From a virus (taxonomy: Duplodnaviria > Heunggongvirae > Uroviricota > Caudoviricetes), in the IMG/VR virus record IMGVR_UViG_2531839524_000004: a stretch of 64,000 nt of DNA, one strand, 5' to 3'. Position numbers and translations under genes: made by a program. This document shows, one piece after another, positions 19,169 to 55,335 of the stretch. Within the stretch, counting starts at the first letter, position 1. Each line of letters begins with the position of its first letter. The notes beneath the pieces are model-generated. The model was given only the letters and a program-made list of their open reading frames with translations. It was not told where the DNA came from and made no database searches.

Positions 19169-19192
19169 TCGGTCTGGGAGCTTATTTAAAGA

Positions 19193-19249
19193 CCTGCTTC
19201 TGTATATATAAATAATAAGTAACTTATTAAATATATATACGGAAGCAGG
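19193..19249. repeat. 57-bp AT-rich palindromic repeat, copy 1
   Basis: cctgcttctgtatatataaataataagtaacttattaaatatatatacggaagcagg; identical copy at 50746-50802. Confidence 0.8.
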
Positions 19250-19286
19250 CTTAATAAGACATGCCCAGACCTAATTAAACAACCCA

Positions 19287-47456: not shown

Positions 47457-47855
47457 ATGCATACTGCACTTAACGCATCTCGTTCTATTCAGACGATAAG
47501 AGACTGTACCAAGATGATCGCATCGGTTCCGTTGCGACATTGGAATGACTCGCTCCAAATTCGTGAAATGAACAAACCGGGTATGCTTAAGGATCAGCGT
47601 TTCATCGTTAACCTTAAAAGTGACGTTGAAGAAGGCAAGTTTACCATCAAATTGTTTGCAGAAATGATGGTGCTCAACAATCGGTTACGTTTTCTTGTTA
47701 AGCCAGAAAAACAGTTTCCCGATGTTGTGCGTTGTGAACAGGATGCTTTCTATGAGATTGAAAGCAAAATAGCTAAATTTATCAAAGATAAATACCGCGT
47801 AGATGTTAAAATAGCGAAACTGGATTCATCTACGGATATGCGGCTTGCTAACTAA
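47457..47855 (+). CDS. hypothetical protein
   Basis: ORF track, 132 aa. Confidence 0.45.
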   Translation: MHTALNASRSIQTIRDCTKMIASVPLRHWNDSLQIREMNKPGMLKDQRFIVNLKSDVEEGKFTIKLFAEMMVLNNRLRFLVKPEKQFPDVVRCEQDAFYEIESKIAKFIKDKYRVDVKIAKLDSSTDMRLAN

Positions 47856-48632
47856 ATGTCACCATCATTCATAGCAGAGTATTCAAAAGTACTGTCTGGT
47901 TTCCCTGAATGTGAAGCAAGAGAGAAAATCAGAGTTGGCTACATGGTTAACTCTGATTTTTCTGTTTTACGGCTCACAGAGTGGTCCTTGATCGGGTCTA
48001 ATTATGATTACTGTTTGACAGTGTCATTTGTAGGCGACCCTGATGCAGATTGGCTTCAAGAACATGCAATGGATCTTGACGAGCAGGGGTATTCAGAAGC
48101 AGAGATAGTTCATAGTGTTCGTGAATTAGTTGGTGATGAGCAAGAAGATGATGACGGCATTCAGATCGCCAGGTTCGTCTACAAACGATTCCAGTTTCGC
48201 TCACAAAAAGGCTCTCATCTTGGGGTCCAGATTAAAGGGGCATTTGTAACCCCTTCAAAGGAACAAAAGGGACTTGCTAGAAGAGTTTACAATTTCCTTC
48301 TCAATTGGCATGACCATGTGGTATGTGATGACCATCAGACGGTTTACGGTGCCAGAATTTGGGCGGTCGGTATGCTTCTGGTCGGGCGTGTCCAAATCTA
48401 TGACAATTTAAACAAAGAATTTATAGATGTCCTTGTTGAAGGTGGTATTGGGCAGAATGGCGTCAAACCGTGGGACGCGCTGCTATTGAGCAGCGAGGCC
48501 CAGTTACGTCACTGGAACCCTATGGCCGTCAGCATAGACCCATCTAGTCAGATTCTCGCCATCATCTCCAAAGAAGACCGTCACATTGAAGTGGGCGTTA
48601 CAACTTTTGACGCCAGGTCTACCAACCATTAA
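47856..48632 (+). CDS. hypothetical protein
   Basis: ORF track, 258 aa; starts directly after the previous stop. Confidence 0.5.
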   Translation: MSPSFIAEYSKVLSGFPECEAREKIRVGYMVNSDFSVLRLTEWSLIGSNYDYCLTVSFVGDPDADWLQEHAMDLDEQGYSEAEIVHSVRELVGDEQEDDDGIQIARFVYKRFQFRSQKGSHLGVQIKGAFVTPSKEQKGLARRVYNFLLNWHDHVVCDDHQTVYGARIWAVGMLLVGRVQIYDNLNKEFIDVLVEGGIGQNGVKPWDALLLSSEAQLRHWNPMAVSIDPSSQILAIISKEDRHIEVGVTTFDARSTNH

Positions 48633-48787: not shown

Positions 48788-49456
48788 ATGACCAAGATCT
48801 TTGTGGTTGGCGGCACAAAGGGCGGGCCTGGCAAATCCACCGTTGCCCAGCAAATTGCCGTTTGCCTGAAAGTCAAAAAGAAGAAGAAGGTTTATATCAC
48901 TGATATAGATATTCAGCGCACGACAACAAGCTGGTGTGAAGACCGTCGACAGAACGAAGACCTTGAGCTGATTCCTTTTGCATACGTTCAGGATGACATC
49001 ATTAAGCACCTAAAATCGCTTCAGGGTAGAGCTGAGTTTGTAGTGGTAGATGCTGGTGGCTTTGACTCCGAAATTCAGCGACAAGCGATGCTGATGGCCG
49101 ACGTTATCATTATCCCGCTGCGTCCTAAGCGTCGTGATTTGAAATCTTTACGTGACATCGATCCTATTATCGACAATGTTCGTAATGTAAACGATAAAGT
49201 GAAGGTCCGCGCGGTCATGAACCAGTGCCCGGCTTTGCCATCACAAGTGTCTCGCATTTTGGCGGCTAAAGAGATTGTCGAGACGTTTGGCATCGAGTCT
49301 GCGCCAGTCAATTTATATAACCGCAACGTCTATGATGATGCGGAAGAGTCTGGTCGTTCTATCTTTGAAATGACCGGTAGCGAGCGCGACAAAAAGGCGG
49401 AAGCCGAGTTTGAAGAATTTGTAGATTATCTGTTGAGTCTGGAGGAAGAAGAATAA
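48788..49456 (+). CDS. ParA-type partition ATPase
   Basis: Deviant Walker A GGTKGGPGKST, Walker B-like FVVVDAGG; 222 aa. Confidence 0.85.
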   Translation: MTKIFVVGGTKGGPGKSTVAQQIAVCLKVKKKKKVYITDIDIQRTTTSWCEDRRQNEDLELIPFAYVQDDIIKHLKSLQGRAEFVVVDAGGFDSEIQRQAMLMADVIIIPLRPKRRDLKSLRDIDPIIDNVRNVNDKVKVRAVMNQCPALPSQVSRILAAKEIVETFGIESAPVNLYNRNVYDDAEESGRSIFEMTGSERDKKAEAEFEEFVDYLLSLEEEE

Positions 49457-49815
49457 TGTCCATGAAAATGGGTGACCTAGCAAAGCGCAAAGAGCCTGAT
49501 GCACCGGCTAAGAACACAACTCCTTTGCGCCAACCAGTCAGACCACAGGGACGCCCGACTCGTGGCAAAGAGAAAATTAAAAGCCGCACAATGTCACTGG
49601 AGGACGAATACTTCGAACTGCTGGAGATGATGAAGTTCATCCCTCGCTTCGAGAAGTTCACTCGTTCTGACGTGATTCGAGCAGCCATTTTCCATCTGGC
49701 AGAGAAGTCACCGCAGGAAATCGAGGACATCGTGAAATTGAATGAGGCGATCACCGCTGCCGATGTCACGATGCGTACCGATGAAATCAAACGAGAGTTG
49801 ATGAAGAAAGGTTAA
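49456..49815 (+). CDS. small partition partner, ribbon-helix-helix-like (ParG-type, putative)
   Basis: 119 aa translationally coupled to parA (TAATG); basic disordered N-terminus then RHH-like MSLEDEYFELLEMM...RSDVIRAAI. Confidence 0.55.
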   Translation: MSMKMGDLAKRKEPDAPAKNTTPLRQPVRPQGRPTRGKEKIKSRTMSLEDEYFELLEMMKFIPRFEKFTRSDVIRAAIFHLAEKSPQEIEDIVKLNEAITAADVTMRTDEIKRELMKKG

Positions 49816-49867
49816 AAATCATGCATTGGCGCGTACATTGCGCCAATGCATAACTACAGTGTCAGCT

Positions 49868-50635
49868 TTATGCCGCGCTAACACTATGTTCAGTCCTAAC
49901 CACCCCAACCTTCACAAAAGGGCTACCGTAGCTTGGTGGCTTCTTGATTAATTTGCCTACATACAGTTTTCTAATATGCTCATCGGCTATTCTGCCAACA
50001 AATTCATAACGTTTTGTGTCGGGGCCAAGAGCTATATCCCTTGTAAAGTACTGCTGAGAACCGGCTTTGACCCAGCATTCAATCTGATAAACTTCCATTA
50101 TCAGCCCACCATATGTAGCGTAGGCATATTTGAGATTCTCGTCTCTTGGAACCTTTGCCCATACGCCACGCGTAGCTTCATATAATGCCAGAGCGGACAT
50201 TCCTGACTTGTAGGTGCTGTTTAGCAGGAAGGCAAGACCGGCGTGCTCAGGAGCAATTTCAGTTTCCTCTTGCAGCACTAAGTGATGGTAGGCGTCCAGT
50301 GATATTCTGCCCATCATGGAACCACTTCCTCGTACCTTATTCGTAAGCTCTCCGACCCCCATAAGGTCGATGCATGTCGCCTCAACAAGTTTGGCTGTGG
50401 TTTCATCCATACCATGACGAAGTATATCTATGCCTAATTTTTTATTAGCCAAAAGTTCTTTGATCCGCATGGATTTGGGAGAGTCATCGGGATACTTGAT
50501 GTGATCGAGACAACGAGTCGATTTGCCTTTTCCTATGTAAAACGGTCTTTTCATCTTGTCTTCTGTATCATAGAGACAGTAAACATAGTATTTAGCCTTA
50601 TCCAATGATCTCGCGTATACCGATAAATCGTCCAT
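49868..50635 (-). CDS. GIY-YIG nuclease-domain protein
   Basis: N-terminal YYVYCLYDTEDK..KRPFYIGKGKSTRCLDH matches the GIY-(10-11)-YIG...R...H layout; 255 aa. Confidence 0.65.
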   Translation of the reverse strand: MDDLSVYARSLDKAKYYVYCLYDTEDKMKRPFYIGKGKSTRCLDHIKYPDDSPKSMRIKELLANKKLGIDILRHGMDETTAKLVEATCIDLMGVGELTNKVRGSGSMMGRISLDAYHHLVLQEETEIAPEHAGLAFLLNSTYKSGMSALALYEATRGVWAKVPRDENLKYAYATYGGLIMEVYQIECWVKAGSQQYFTRDIALGPDTKRYEFVGRIADEHIRKLYVGKLIKKPPSYGSPFVKVGVVRTEHSVSAA

Positions 50636-50745
50636 TATTGCATCTCTTTGCTACTGACTAATGCGTTCTATTTTACACATAAGTTTTTAATCAATTTAAC
50701 AGGCTCAAAGTGTAGAGCTTCTGGGCGTCTAAGACGACAAGTTAG

Positions 50746-50802
50746 CCTGCTTCTGTATATATAAATAATAAGTAACTTATTAAATATATATACGGAAGCA
50801 GG
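50746..50802. repeat. 57-bp AT-rich palindromic repeat, copy 2
   Basis: Identical to 19193-19249; lies in the divergent promoter region between the GIY-YIG gene and gene 50910. Confidence 0.8.
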
Positions 50803-50909
50803 TCTTTTAAAAGACACCACCAGAACAACTCCCTTCCGTTTCCACTTCCAAAAACTGCCACCAGTCGCTATCATCCGCTCATTGTGATAAGTAAGTAACT
50901 ACCTACCAG

Positions 50910-51659
50910 GTGAGCCACATGAGCCAAATCTTTTTCGATACCATCGACAACGACCAGTACGACTTCATGACAGAGTGGAATACCGCTGTTATGGACAAGT
51001 GGGTCGCTGAAAACATTGGTTTGTCGCGCTGTAAAGACGAGGCTGAACTCTTCGAGACGAAGTGGTTTGATTACCGCGACATGCATCCTCTCATGGCCAC
51101 CTGTCTTTTTACGGAGGCATACAAACGTCAGTACTCAAATATCATGCTGACGCACGGTCGCGAACACTTTGAAACAGCTCCGTTCACCACCGGGTTAAAA
51201 CGCCTGCCTTATCAGGAGTTGTCGACTGCCAATAAAACGTCGCTATGGAAAGCACGCCAGTTTGCGGATCGCTATTGCTGCTCATACGACTACTTTATCT
51301 CCACCGTTCTTTCCGCAGCTGCACGACGGCTGTGGGACAAGCTGCCGCGCCCACAGCATTTGTGGCAGCCAGAACTGATTGAGATATTTGAAGAGAAATT
51401 AGCCAGACGCGCAACAACCCGTCTGGATGACTCTCTGGTTAGCTTTAAGCATATGGGAGACATGCAGTTCAACCCGATTCAGGAAAGCTATTTTGAGTGG
51501 ATTCTGGAGCGTTTGCGCACCATCCCTCGCAGCAAGCGCATACGCGCAATTTTCTCCGCTATCTGGCTAATGGAAATCGTTCCAGAGCGCCTTATTTCCG
51601 CCCACTTTCCAGAAGAACTGGAAGAAGCACGGCGGTTTATTGATCCCCTATCTAATTAA
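50910..51659 (+). CDS. hypothetical protein (replication module; initiator or helicase loader is possible)
   Basis: ORF track, 249 aa, immediately upstream of the DnaB-like helicase. Confidence 0.45.
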   Translation: MSHMSQIFFDTIDNDQYDFMTEWNTAVMDKWVAENIGLSRCKDEAELFETKWFDYRDMHPLMATCLFTEAYKRQYSNIMLTHGREHFETAPFTTGLKRLPYQELSTANKTSLWKARQFADRYCCSYDYFISTVLSAAARRLWDKLPRPQHLWQPELIEIFEEKLARRATTRLDDSLVSFKHMGDMQFNPIQESYFEWILERLRTIPRSKRIRAIFSAIWLMEIVPERLISAHFPEELEEARRFIDPLSN

Positions 51660-51702: not shown

Positions 51703-53043
51703 ATGACCGAACTTTGCCATACAGGACGCGGGCTGTCCGAAGAGTTTGATGAAGATTTCCAGAACAGACTGACGGCATATTTTTGTCGTGATCACGAGTT
51801 TCTTACTCGTGCGGGAGATCTGGTTGTGCCTAGCCAATTTGCCAATGCGGCCAATGCCATATTGGTTAATATGGTTTCGGGCTATTACCGTATGTACAAG
51901 AGCGCGCCCTCTTCATCTGCAATTCTGGATATGCTTAAGCGTGCGAAACGCGATAAGACTATCCGTGAGGAACTATTCGCCGATGTTGTTGCTGCGTTTA
52001 AGCGCATTCTTGCAGAAAAATTGTCCGATACCTCGTACATGGTTGACCAGGTATCAACCTTCGCAAAAAGTGTAGCGTTTGATGATGCTCTGATTAAGGC
52101 TGCTGAACTGAAAGAGAAAGGCGACTTTCACGGGGCGATGGCAATCATGGCCAAGGTTCAGCAGATTGGATCGAACGAAGCGACCGGAATCTATGACTAC
52201 TACACCTCCGCAAGTGAGCGATTGAAAGCGCGTGAATATGAGGCTTCAGAGGAGTATGTACCAAACAGTATTACAACTGGACTCCCTCTTCTCGATAGGT
52301 TGCTGTACCAAAAAGGCTGGGCAAAGCGCGAAATGGTGCTCTTCATGGGGTTCGCTAAATCCGGTAAATCGACCGCAATGGGTGAGTTTTCCATAAACGC
52401 AACACTTGCTGGCTACAATGTTCTGTATCTCTCGCTGGAGGTTCACACCACCATTTTATCCGACCGTTTTGATGCAAGATTGTCGGAGACGGAAATGTCC
52501 AAGTTGGTGGAACGGCGCGATGAAGTTCATCGCAAGTTGGCAGAGTTGGGAGCTACGAAGGGTATTGGTAGTTTGTGGGTTGTTGAGCGTCCGTCAGGAA
52601 GTATGTCACCGGCAGATCTGGACCGTATGCTTAACAGCATGAAAGCCAACGGCATGGTGCCTGACATGGTTGTTGTCGACTACGCAGATTTGATGCGTGC
52701 CAGTTATGACCTTCGTGATGATCGCGCCAACATTCGTAGTATCTACACCGATTTACGTGCTCTTTATGACAAGCATAACGTTGCTGGGATCACGGCATCG
52801 CAGACAAACCGTGAAGGTGGCGCGTCAGAAGTTGCCACAATGATGCACGCTGCCGACAACATCGAAAAAGTACGTATTGCTGACCTGGTAATAACGATCA
52901 ACAAAACCGAAGAAGAAGAAGCGAAAGGAGAGGCTCGTCTCTACTTTGCTGGTTCACGTAACCAGCAGGGAGGGATCAGCATTCGCGTTAAACAAAACCT
53001 CGAACAAATGCGCTTCATTGAGCGAATCTTAGACGTTACCTAA
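51703..53043 (+). CDS. DnaB-like replicative helicase
   Basis: Walker A GFAKSGKST, Walker B MVVVDYADLM, SQ.NR-like ASQTNREG, as in DnaB C-terminal domains. Confidence 0.7.
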   Translation: MTELCHTGRGLSEEFDEDFQNRLTAYFCRDHEFLTRAGDLVVPSQFANAANAILVNMVSGYYRMYKSAPSSSAILDMLKRAKRDKTIREELFADVVAAFKRILAEKLSDTSYMVDQVSTFAKSVAFDDALIKAAELKEKGDFHGAMAIMAKVQQIGSNEATGIYDYYTSASERLKAREYEASEEYVPNSITTGLPLLDRLLYQKGWAKREMVLFMGFAKSGKSTAMGEFSINATLAGYNVLYLSLEVHTTILSDRFDARLSETEMSKLVERRDEVHRKLAELGATKGIGSLWVVERPSGSMSPADLDRMLNSMKANGMVPDMVVVDYADLMRASYDLRDDRANIRSIYTDLRALYDKHNVAGITASQTNREGGASEVATMMHAADNIEKVRIADLVITINKTEEEEAKGEARLYFAGSRNQQGGISIRVKQNLEQMRFIERILDVT

Positions 53044-53124
53044 AAAATAAGCGTGGAGAACACCTCCACGCTTGATTCATTGGTGAAACAACTTTTCTTT
53101 TGCCAAACCACAAAAGAAAAACAC

Positions 53125-54306
53125 ATGAGCCTTTATGTTATATCAACATTTAGGTTGGTCACAATATTGCCTGTTAAAAGTGGAATTATCGTGAGCGAGC
53201 TGAAAGAGCTAATTACCGAATTAGATTTTGAACAATGGTTGGATACTGAAGGTATCGTTTATCGACGTGGAGGCGTGAGTACTCGCGGTCGTGAAGTGAA
53301 TATCAAGGAGTGTCCGGTATGTGGCAGCTCCAACTGGAAGGTATATTTCAATCTGACCAGTGGCGTCGGTAAATGCTTCGCTGGTGATCATCCCGAAGAG
53401 ATTCAGTTCAATAAGCTGGTCTTCCTCAAGCACTACAGCGGCAAATCACGACGACAGTTCGAGGAATATGTGCAGAACGCCCTTCTTTCCCAGGGGTGGG
53501 CACCAAAGAAAGAAGAGCTAGTGCTTGCAAGCACAGTCGAGTTAGAGGGGCCAGTTGCACTCCCTCGTCATTACGAGCTTCCTATAGATGGTCGTCTTCC
53601 AGACTATCTGGTTGAACGAAACATATCGCCTGAAATGGCAAAGTATTTTGACCTACGATACTGCGTCGAAGGCAAGCACGCCTATGTAGATCCGTATACA
53701 GATCAGGTTAAAGGACAGATATTCGATATGCGAATACTGATACCGGTTTACGATCTGGATGGGGTAATGAAGACATTTCAGGGACGAGACATTACCGGTA
53801 CAGCAGAACGTCGCTACCTCTTTCCTATGCAGCTTCCAGCTTCAGGTAAGTTTCTCTACAACGGCCATAATGCAGTCGGCAAACAGACGGTAGTTGTCTG
53901 TGAGGGGGCGTTCGATGTTATGGGGGTCAAACGAGCTATTTTTGACGAAGAAACATTACGTGATTACGTGGAACCAATAGGAACGTTCGGGATGCATCTA
54001 TCTGGCAACACCACTCAGGATGCAGAAGATCAGCTGGGCGCGTTCCTGACGCTCAAGGCGCGTGGATTACGTAATGTGATCATGATGTGGGATAGTGAAA
54101 AGCAAGCTATACGCAACACTATGGCCGCAGCTAGGCGACTCACAAGTATTGGCCTTAATGTCAAAGTTGCGTGTTTGGGCGAGGAAGGACTCGACCCCGG
54201 CGATGCGACACCGGGGCAGATTATCAAAGCCTACTATTGCGCAAAACCTTATTCACGACAGCTTGAACTCTTAAGCAAGGTGAAAGGCATTGCAGCACTA
54301 GTTTGA
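53125..54306 (+). CDS. DNA primase (zinc-ribbon plus Toprim)
   Basis: Zn ribbon CPVCGSS...GKCFAGDH; Toprim-like VVVCEGAFDVMGV and MMWDSE; start uncertain (53053/53125/GTG 53191). Confidence 0.7.
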   Translation: MSLYVISTFRLVTILPVKSGIIVSELKELITELDFEQWLDTEGIVYRRGGVSTRGREVNIKECPVCGSSNWKVYFNLTSGVGKCFAGDHPEEIQFNKLVFLKHYSGKSRRQFEEYVQNALLSQGWAPKKEELVLASTVELEGPVALPRHYELPIDGRLPDYLVERNISPEMAKYFDLRYCVEGKHAYVDPYTDQVKGQIFDMRILIPVYDLDGVMKTFQGRDITGTAERRYLFPMQLPASGKFLYNGHNAVGKQTVVVCEGAFDVMGVKRAIFDEETLRDYVEPIGTFGMHLSGNTTQDAEDQLGAFLTLKARGLRNVIMMWDSEKQAIRNTMAAARRLTSIGLNVKVACLGEEGLDPGDATPGQIIKAYYCAKPYSRQLELLSKVKGIAALV

Positions 54307-55335
54307 ACCAGTATTAGTCACGTAAACATTGACCGAAAATGATTTAACTTCTGTGTTGAAGTTGTCAGTCATTACCGCGAGGTAGGCATTCTTGGTATCT
54401 CTGAATTGCTTCAGGATGATTTGAACGTTATCGGTGCAAACAAACGAGGTAGCCAGATTGCCTCCTTTCTCTGAAAAATCCTTTAGGAAAGTGCAGTCAA
54501 TTTTGCCATCATTAGCGGTGAAGGTGGCATCATCACCCTGCCAGGTAAATGTTGCGTTAACGCCTTTATCAATGGATTTAGCAATAAGTCGCTGAGTGGA
54601 GGATTTTGCTTTAGATCTTGCTGCTGATGGTTGGTATTTACCGCTTTCTTTTAGTTCTGCAATGTAATCACAGCCATTTTTATCTTCTTTATCGCAAGCT
54701 GCCTGATAAAGCTCAGCTGCTTTTTTATAATCTTTTTTAACCCCTTCACCATACTCATACATAATGCCAAGATTCGCCAATGCAGATGCACTGCCTAGTT
54801 CGATTCCTTTTTTATAATACTCTATTGCCTTTTTGTAGCTTTTTGGCACGCCTGCGCCAACATAATATAACTGTCCTAGATATGACGCAGATTCAGGGTC
54901 GCCAGCCTCTACTGCAAGTTTGTGATATTTCAGGGAAAGTTTTTGGTCTTTCTTACCCGCAAGTCCTTTATGATAAATAACACCCAGATTGTGATAAGAG
55001 TTGCCTCCAGCTGCATCACCAGCTTTCTTAAAGAGTTCCTCTGCCTTTTTGAAATTTTTATCAACCCCATACCCAAGGGCATACATTATACCTAGAGCAT
55101 TAAACGCTTCTTTGTTCCCCTTAGAAGTCGCCAGTTCAAGCCATTTTCTGGCTTCATCGTAGTTTTTTTCGACACCATGAATACCTTTCATATAGTCGAT
55201 ACCTAAAGCACTCTGTGACTCAACGTCGCCTGCTTTTGCCGCATCGATCAGCTTTTGTATTTCATAGGCATGTGCACTCCCCGAAACAAGTAATAGCGAC
55301 AACATAAAGAAAGATATTGGTTTGAAATGTTTCAT
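54298..55335 (-). CDS. secreted Sel1-repeat protein
   Basis: Signal peptide ...LLLVSGSAHA; at least six Sel1/TPR-like repeats (A..G...A.LG.MY..G.GV.K(D/N)YKKA...Y.KA); unrecognised about 110-aa C-terminal domain. Confidence 0.8.
   Translation of the reverse strand: MKHFKPISFFMLSLLLVSGSAHAYEIQKLIDAAKAGDVESQSALGIDYMKGIHGVEKNYDEARKWLELATSKGNKEAFNALGIMYALGYGVDKNFKKAEELFKKAGDAAGGNSYHNLGVIYHKGLAGKKDQKLSLKYHKLAVEAGDPESASYLGQLYYVGAGVPKSYKKAIEYYKKGIELGSASALANLGIMYEYGEGVKKDYKKAAELYQAACDKEDKNGCDYIAELKESGKYQPSAARSKAKSSTQRLIAKSIDKGVNATFTWQGDDATFTANDGKIDCTFLKDFSEKGGNLATSFVCTDNVQIILKQFRDTKNAYLAVMTDNFNTEVKSFSVNVYVTNTGSN

Follow-up and report, generated by a model that had tools for sequence, protein, structure and literature searches.

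What is a nuclease gene doing, on its own and in inverted orientation, between the partition and replication genes of a phage-plasmid? The question is raised by a 64,000-nucleotide stretch of DNA from a Caudoviricetes virus (IMG/VR record IMGVR_UViG_2531839524_000004; the window in what follows). The minus strand at 49868..50635 carries an open reading frame with an ATG start that encodes a protein of 255 amino acids. The original prediction, made from the sequence alone, read this gene as a free-standing GIY-YIG nuclease whose isolated position beside a 57-bp palindrome suggested a homing endonuclease or another site-specific enzyme, and added that it might serve in competition between phages. 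Our analysis points elsewhere. We conclude, with a probability of roughly 0.8, that the gene encodes a modification-dependent (type IV) restriction enzyme, a one-protein system of the PD-T4-3/CMoRE family, and that an SSU5-like Escherichia coli phage-plasmid carries it as accessory cargo. As judged from sequence comparison, both of its domains are homologous to CMoRE, and the GIYxY-YIG motif, arginine and glutamate of the predicted catalytic site are intact. The gene itself is a self-contained cassette, and some other alleles of the hot spot that it occupies hold candidate defence genes.

The nature of the carrier is clear from its matches. The 3-kb region around the gene matches two Escherichia phages, CMS-2020a and PhiR41_1, at 98.5-99.5% identity, as it does many E. 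coli plasmids about 105-115 kb long, and the par genes of the window share 86% identity with their counterparts in Salmonella phage SSU5. This makes the window an SSU5-like Escherichia phage-plasmid.

The N-terminal GIY-YIG motif proposed for the nuclease was borne out by the Pfam model LEM-3_GIY-YIG (PF22945), which matched residues 32-104 at 30.1 bits against a cut-off of 27. The N-terminus reads KYY-V-Y-CLYD...RPF-Y-IGKGK..R, placing the motif residues at Y17-V-Y19, F-Y33-I-G-K-G and R41. In an alignment of 35 homologues Y17, Y19, Y33, R41, E85 and N99 are invariant. Other profile collections had little to say about the protein. NCBIfam returned no matches, and PHROGs returned a single unnamed family, phrog_5356 (E 1e-99); the ‘homing endonuclease’ label of phrog_314, at E 0.28, is noise and was discarded. 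In the records that we fetched, the gene is currently called a ‘hypothetical protein’ or a ‘LEM-3-like GIY-YIG domain-containing protein’. Two plus-strand open reading frames that lie antisense within it, 49976-50185 and 50185-50346, were treated as chance occurrences.

Assignment to a family came from comparisons that extend well past the GIY-YIG domain. The PADLOC model for PD-T4-3 (PDLC04031) matched with an E-value of 1.3e-23 and 81.9 bits, judged on these values rather than on PADLOC’s own cut-offs, and aligned residues 11-231 with profile positions 11-238 of 256, or 89% of the profile. A phmmer search of the PDB sequences matched residues 12-230 to the CMoRE/PD-T4-3 crystal structures 9U7U and 9U75 (E 2e-15), and a profile built from the 35 homologues improved this to 6.6e-23. 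Over 207 aligned residues the nuclease is 35% identical to CMoRE, with 40% identity in the N-terminal domain and 32% in the C-terminal domain. The third tyrosine that marks the family (GIYxY-YIG) is kept, as Y17, Y19, Y31 and R39 of CMoRE align with Y17, Y19, Y33 and R41 of the nuclease. The catalytic glutamate, E85, falls in an aligned ‘VEA’ segment in the HMMER alignment to CMoRE. The known systems consist of one gene, and the same is found here: the 932-bp cassette (49814..50745) holds nothing but the nuclease gene, its terminator and its upstream region.

The C-terminal 150 residues had been described as unassigned. This holds for Pfam and NCBIfam, but an assignment does emerge from PADLOC, from the PDB sequences and from comparison of folds. 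The AlphaFold2 (AF2) model of the full-length monomer has a mean predicted local distance difference test score (pLDDT) of 83.8, and a Foldseek search of the PDB with this model gave CMoRE as all four top matches (E 7e-12 to 9e-11), followed by UvrC GIY-YIG domains. The global superposition of the model on CMoRE was nevertheless poor (template modelling score, TM, 0.38; root-mean-square deviation, rmsd, 16 Å), because a flexible, low-confidence inter-domain linker (residues 95-106, pLDDT below 50) allows the two domains to take up different relative positions. The corresponding linker of CMoRE likewise has no density in the crystal structures (PMC12923530). We therefore modelled the predicted modified-base sensor domain (residues ~112-245) separately, and it superposed on the CMoRE sensor at 2.5 Å over 121 residues. 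The ‘unassigned’ part of the protein is the CMoRE sensor domain.

What such a protein does can be read from published work on its relatives. PD-T4-3 was discovered by functional selection in E. coli (Vassallo 2022, PMC9519451) and was later characterised and renamed CMoRE, a type IV restriction endonuclease (Liu 2026, PMC12923530). CMoRE binds and degrades DNA containing 5-hydroxymethylcytosine (5hmC) or glucosyl-5hmC, but not DNA containing cytosine or 5-methylcytosine, and gives direct immunity against T2, T4 and T6 (PMC12923530). It cuts at CN11/N9G and functions as a tetramer, a dimer of dimers, which is needed for its activity; it acts weakly on arabinosylated phages (PMC12923530). A relative from Capnocytophaga, PD-T4-3Capno, is 48% identical to PD-T4-3 and provides modification-dependent defence (Rodriguez-Rodriguez 2025, PMC12366544); it also cuts Mom-modified Mu DNA (PMC12366544). 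Activity of the family has been reported in a native E. coli host. SSU5-group phage-plasmids from E. coli and Shigella appear among the carriers of PD-T4-3 in a 2025 preprint survey made with DefenseFinder. Published work thus covers the family with its mechanism and structure as well as its occurrence in such elements, and existing models recognise the protein.

By analogy with the published family members, the protein would be produced in cells with a resident phage-plasmid and would probably form a tetramer. The C-terminal domain would bind hypermodified bases on incoming DNA, most likely the 5-hydroxymethylcytosine and glucosyl-hydroxymethylcytosine of T-even phages. The GIY-YIG domain would then cut both strands at a fixed distance from pairs of modified bases, and the unmodified DNA of the host and of the phage-plasmid would be left uncut. 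The expected outcome is direct immunity rather than abortive infection, from which the host, and hence the resident phage-plasmid, would gain. The earlier suggestion of a part in inter-phage competition comes close to this role, with the phage-plasmid predicted from the PD-T4-3/CMoRE homology to defend its host against other phages.

Several observations weigh against the assignment to this family and function. Identity to the characterised enzymes is only 35%. Of the tetramer-interface residues of CMoRE, R80, V92 and L96, which align with R73, V84 and C88 of the nuclease, the first two are conserved and the leucine is replaced by cysteine. Y127 of CMoRE, which contacts 5hmC, aligns with L121, although this says little either way because the contact runs through a main-chain oxygen. 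The HMMER alignment to CMoRE shows an α2-α3 lid loop that lacks 5 residues and reads YPDDSP, with two acidic residues, against VDDDE in 9U7U. Finally, a promoter consensus scan called nothing inside the cassette, so that the predicted expression from the resident phage-plasmid is assumed.

In CMoRE the lid is a 15-residue insert that covers the active site and contains a run of four acidic residues; when these are neutralised, the enzyme cuts normal DNA and becomes toxic (PMC12923530). The short loop is common to the whole subfamily to which the phage-plasmid protein belongs, with one to three acidic residues. As the CMoRE authors claim an acidic loop only for ‘most’ family members (PMC12923530), the differences in the lid, at Y127 and at L96 are no argument against membership. 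The short, weakly acidic lid may instead give this subfamily a different or broader modification spectrum, or another way of sparing host DNA.

A protein of the same fold and chemistry could also have another target, such as a Mom-type modified adenine or arabinosyl-hydroxymethylcytosine, or could be used mainly by the phage-plasmid in its lytic phase, against the genomes of competitors, and less for shielding the lysogen. The sensor domain is only 32% identical to that of CMoRE, the lid is shortened throughout the subfamily, and the plasticity of the family has been published, with PD-T4-3Capno acting on Mu DNA (PMC12366544) and CMoRE on arabinosylated phages (PMC12923530). Homologues spanning both domains in virulent jumbo phages of Serratia and Pectobacterium make a use on the phage side plausible. 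However, the fold of the sensor is closely conserved, a homologue as distant as 48% kept its activity on T-even phages (PMC12366544), and the sequence gives no pointer to any specific alternative ligand. We regard a changed target or a lytic use as unlikely, and T-even DNA as the probable target of the phage-plasmid enzyme.

The separately modelled C-terminal domain gave one further clue. The CMoRE sensor was published as a fold without relatives, and the modified base is reported to bind along one edge of it instead of in a pocket (PMC12923530). In our search the next-best fold matches after CMoRE were PUA-like readers, and on the strength of this model the CMoRE sensor may be a very divergent PUA-like (EVE/YTH/ASCH) domain. 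If true, this would tie PD-T4-3/CMoRE to the mainstream of type IV restriction enzymes. In the type IV enzymes with PUA-like readers (EVE, YTH, ASCH or SRA domains, as in McrB N-domains, VcaM4I and MspJI/PvuRts1I) the nuclease is HNH, PD-(D/E)xK or GTPase-coupled, whereas here it is GIY-YIG.

We fetched eight alleles of the locus (L001-L008) and aligned their junctions. Homology of the window to phage Cyrano and to SSU5 ends at 49813 and restarts at 50746, and in all eight alleles the edges of the variable segment are exact to the base, running from the stop codon of the gene in the parB position to the first base of the palindrome. The smallest allele, from pCMZE123_2 (L004), has 32 bp and no cargo. 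The others hold a DUF2971 protein in Cyrano (L001, 826 bp), a 225-aa protein on the minus strand (L007, 918 bp), the PD-T4-3-type nuclease gene in this window and in PhiR41_1 (L002; 932 and 937 bp), proteins of 246 and 136 aa (L008, 1187 bp), a 352-aa protein on the minus strand (L005, 1241 bp), a KAP-family P-loop NTPase (L006, 1758 bp) and three genes in SSU5, one of which encodes a DUF2971 protein (L003, 1938 bp). The DUF2971 proteins match the PADLOC candidate system PDC-S31 (E 3e-41 and 2e-33) and the KAP NTPase matches the candidate PDC-S49 (E 2e-22). The 352-aa, 225-aa and 246-aa plus 136-aa cargo proteins have no Pfam or PADLOC match.

The empty allele differs slightly in its flank. 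Comparison of L004 1385-1414 with window positions 49784-49813 showed several differences in the last 30 bp of the gene in the parB position, all of them synonymous, and translation across the junction shows that the protein still terminates in EIKRELMKKG. These synonymous differences suggest that the flank of L004 was acquired from a more distant lineage by recombination.

The slot bears directly on the proposal that the gene is a free-standing GIY-YIG homing endonuclease, which would cut phage-plasmids lacking it, at the empty slot or at the palindrome, and be copied in by repair. The gene is indeed free-standing and inverted between conserved genes, a presence/absence polymorphism that includes an empty allele exists, and some distant phage homologues are annotated as ‘putative homing nuclease’. 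But the slot is multi-allelic. At least seven different inserts occupy the same two edges, most of them without any nuclease, so the polymorphism is not driven by the nuclease gene. The comparison of presence and absence suggested with the original prediction thus returned a real polymorphism, but one that is a property of the slot, with at least six unrelated cassettes at the same edges, and not of the homing type. UvrC and T4 EndoII score as high as I-TevI against the protein, and therefore only the generic catalytic core is shared. We found no NUMOD, IENR1, helix-turn-helix (HTH) or zinc-finger Pfam match, even at E-values up to 10, and hence no sequence-specific DNA-binding tail of the kind that the homing claim calls for. 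A homologue with 75% identity is a solitary chromosomal gene beside mutS in Providencia. Homing is therefore very unlikely.

The palindrome was the other part of that proposal. It lies where it had been described, beside the gene: an imperfect palindrome at 50746-50802, 110 bp upstream of the nuclease start codon. A second exact copy in the same orientation is found 31.5 kb away at 19193-19249, where shuffled sequence gave 0 matches; it forms the core of a 101-bp palindrome (19171-19271) between genes of 88 and 210 aa. The copy beside the nuclease gene lies between the partition and replication genes and, in the empty allele, is 32 bp past the parB stop. An exact search for the 57 bp in three other loci gave no match, because the other alleles hold variant versions, which the junction alignment revealed. 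Such variants are present in every allele, with or without the nuclease gene, including the empty one. The palindrome is a backbone element at the right edge of the slot, neither part of the cassette nor specific to the nuclease. It was accordingly rejected as the cognate site of the enzyme, and the idea that the nuclease acts on it is not supported, since gene-less alleles conserve it as well. It might act as a dispersed partition site, as an operator or as an origin element, but these are guesses; a literature search found nothing relevant on the function of the palindrome or on a partition site in SSU5-like elements. The 210-aa gene beside the distant copy directly precedes a 418-aa open reading frame and may encode a terminase small subunit.

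On the minus strand a hairpin at 49817..49855 begins 13 nt past the nuclease stop codon and is followed by a U-run (AUUUUUAACC). Folding the minus-strand RNA of 49806-49872 gave a 16-pair stem of -25.1 kcal/mol (z -4.55), which none of 200 shuffled sequences equalled. A simple terminator scan had not called this hairpin; it was folding that revealed it. The hairpin is probably the intrinsic terminator of the nuclease transcript, and as it directly follows the parB stop it would close the convergent parAB transcript too. It is specific to this cassette, each of the other alleles having a different hairpin just after the parB stop. At the other end, the 110 bp upstream of the gene (50636..50745, minus strand) lie within the variable segment and travel with the gene, and the native promoter and ribosome-binding site are presumably located there. 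The surroundings are AT-rich, with a GC content of 0.36 for 50400-50799. The sole promoter-like sites on the nuclease strand (50811..50783) fall in the palindrome and are no commoner than in shuffled sequence. The base composition of the gene is not distinct (GC 0.44-0.48, against 0.42-0.51 for the backbone) and gives no signal of foreign DNA.

The lack of a called promoter could be taken to mean that the gene is a non-functional passenger, a decaying or silent remnant. The reduction of the acidic lid fits with this, as do a 104-bp remnant of the gene in one record and an IS100 element in the locus of another. Yet the reading frame is intact and full length, with all catalytic residues invariant, and the gene has its own strong terminator hairpin. 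Identity of at least 99% is maintained across 105 complete E. coli genomes of varied host and country, and the gene remains intact even in a 1.6-kb fragment between insertion sequence (IS) remnants on unrelated 141-kb plasmids. Decay is the least credible explanation that we considered and is extremely improbable.

Comparison with known systems shows what is usual about this gene and what is not. Like CMoRE/PD-T4-3 from E. coli ECOR68, APEC O1 and O157:H7 (PDB 9U7U, 9U7Z, 9U75 and 9U8D), it is a single gene for a protein of about 255 aa, with an N-terminal GIY-YIG domain containing the extra tyrosine and the catalytic arginine and glutamate, and it is carried on a mobile element. It differs from these in sitting in the parB-to-rep slot of an SSU5-like phage-plasmid. 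PD-T4-3Capno is a divergent member that still defends, showing that function in this family survives a large sequence distance. The GIY-YIG homing endonucleases I-TevI and Seg share the catalytic domain with the phage-plasmid nuclease, but here the C-terminal domain is a predicted modified-base sensor and the insertion polymorphism belongs to the slot. The slot itself resembles the hot spots of P2 and P4 and the ‘morons’ of prophages, where a fixed position in the backbone takes alternative self-contained cassettes with their own terminator hairpin, and as in the P2/P4 hot spots several of the cassettes are known or candidate defence genes. Unlike those hot spots, it lies between a partition operon and the replication genes and is delimited with single-base precision.

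Between the parB stop and the palindrome there would be a previously undescribed, base-exact exchange site for defence cassettes in SSU5-like phage-plasmids. This reading is tentative, as are those of an altered spectrum or mode of self-sparing in the short-lid subfamily and of a PUA-like sensor, and we consider this set of readings less likely than not. The base-exact cargo slot with its empty allele, the shortened lid of the subfamily and the PUA-like look of the sensor are small additions to what is known, and the slot and the lid seem to be unreported.

The backbone locus is present in 264 of 5426 complete E. coli genomes and the nuclease gene in 107, both always on plasmids and the nuclease gene never on the chromosome, so that about 107 of the 264 genomes with the locus carry it. 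In 105 of the 107 carriers, which come from many hosts and countries, it is at least 99% identical. By analogy with the characterised family members, the nuclease would probably make about 2% of complete E. coli genomes (107/5426) resistant to T4-like phages, which is of relevance to phage therapy and to the prediction of phage host range. For annotation, the gene can now be read as a type IV restriction enzyme instead of a hypothetical protein. In PLSDB the protein is found in 179 plasmids, mostly from Escherichia (coli, albertii and fergusonii), and homologues of 60-76% identity occur in plasmids of Leclercia, Salmonella and Alteromonas. A large protein collection holds more than 280 homologues, with identities down to about 50% among the 120 matches listed. 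The canonical PD-T4-3 type, 32% identical to the nuclease, occurs in a 43.7-kb phage-like plasmid beside a type II restriction-modification pair and tail genes.

More distant relatives are found in virulent phages. Jumbo phages of Serratia and Pectobacterium (Moabite, 2050HW, BUCT660, Yubaba and others; records ON287375, MK994515, MF285618, OK040170, ON375847 and others) encode homologues that are 28-30% identical over both domains and are labelled ‘endonuclease’, ‘nuclease’, ‘G-I-Y Y-I-G endonuclease’ or hypothetical protein. These may be phage-borne modification-dependent nucleases directed against competitors. The matches labelled ‘putative homing nuclease’ are shorter and come from Klebsiella phage N1M2 and Pseudomonas phage OBP.

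The locus has also been disturbed or captured in a few records. The 1.6-kb fragment between IS remnants (L012; NZ_CP062837.1 19094-20708) holds the gene in the parB position, the intact nuclease gene and the truncated start of the 249-aa gene that follows the slot; the 141-kb plasmids of this type are not phage-plasmids and carry cofR, the regulator of the CFA/III pilus. In the E. coli plasmid NZ_CP195970.1, IS100 (istA/istB) is inserted in the 3-kb locus and the nuclease gene is still annotated. The 104-bp remnant is all that one further record holds of the gene.

The genes around the slot agree with the earlier description of an inverted gene between partition and replication modules: each of the following neighbours lies on the plus strand. 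A ParA-type ATPase (48788-49456; Pfam MipZ/AAA_31/CbiA) is followed by the 119-aa backbone gene in the parB position (49456..49815), which has no Pfam match of its own, is kept in all alleles and provides, with its stop codon, the left edge of the slot. Beyond the palindrome lie the 249-aa gene (50910-51659) and two genes that near-identical records annotate as a DnaB-like helicase (51703-53043) and a primase (53053-54306).

Two neighbouring features may extend the list of accessory genes. Directly after the primase gene, on the opposite strand at 54298-55335, lies a gene for a 345-aa protein with five Sel1 repeats (Pfam E 1e-37) and a hydrophobic, signal-peptide-like N-terminus, which may be another accessory gene. 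A second variable slot (47457-48632) is found between the lysis genes and parA. In the window it holds genes for proteins of 132 and 258 aa, with no Pfam or PADLOC match; in phage Cyrano the same position is occupied by a KacT-type acetyltransferase toxin with its antitoxin, and in SSU5 by two other hypothetical genes.
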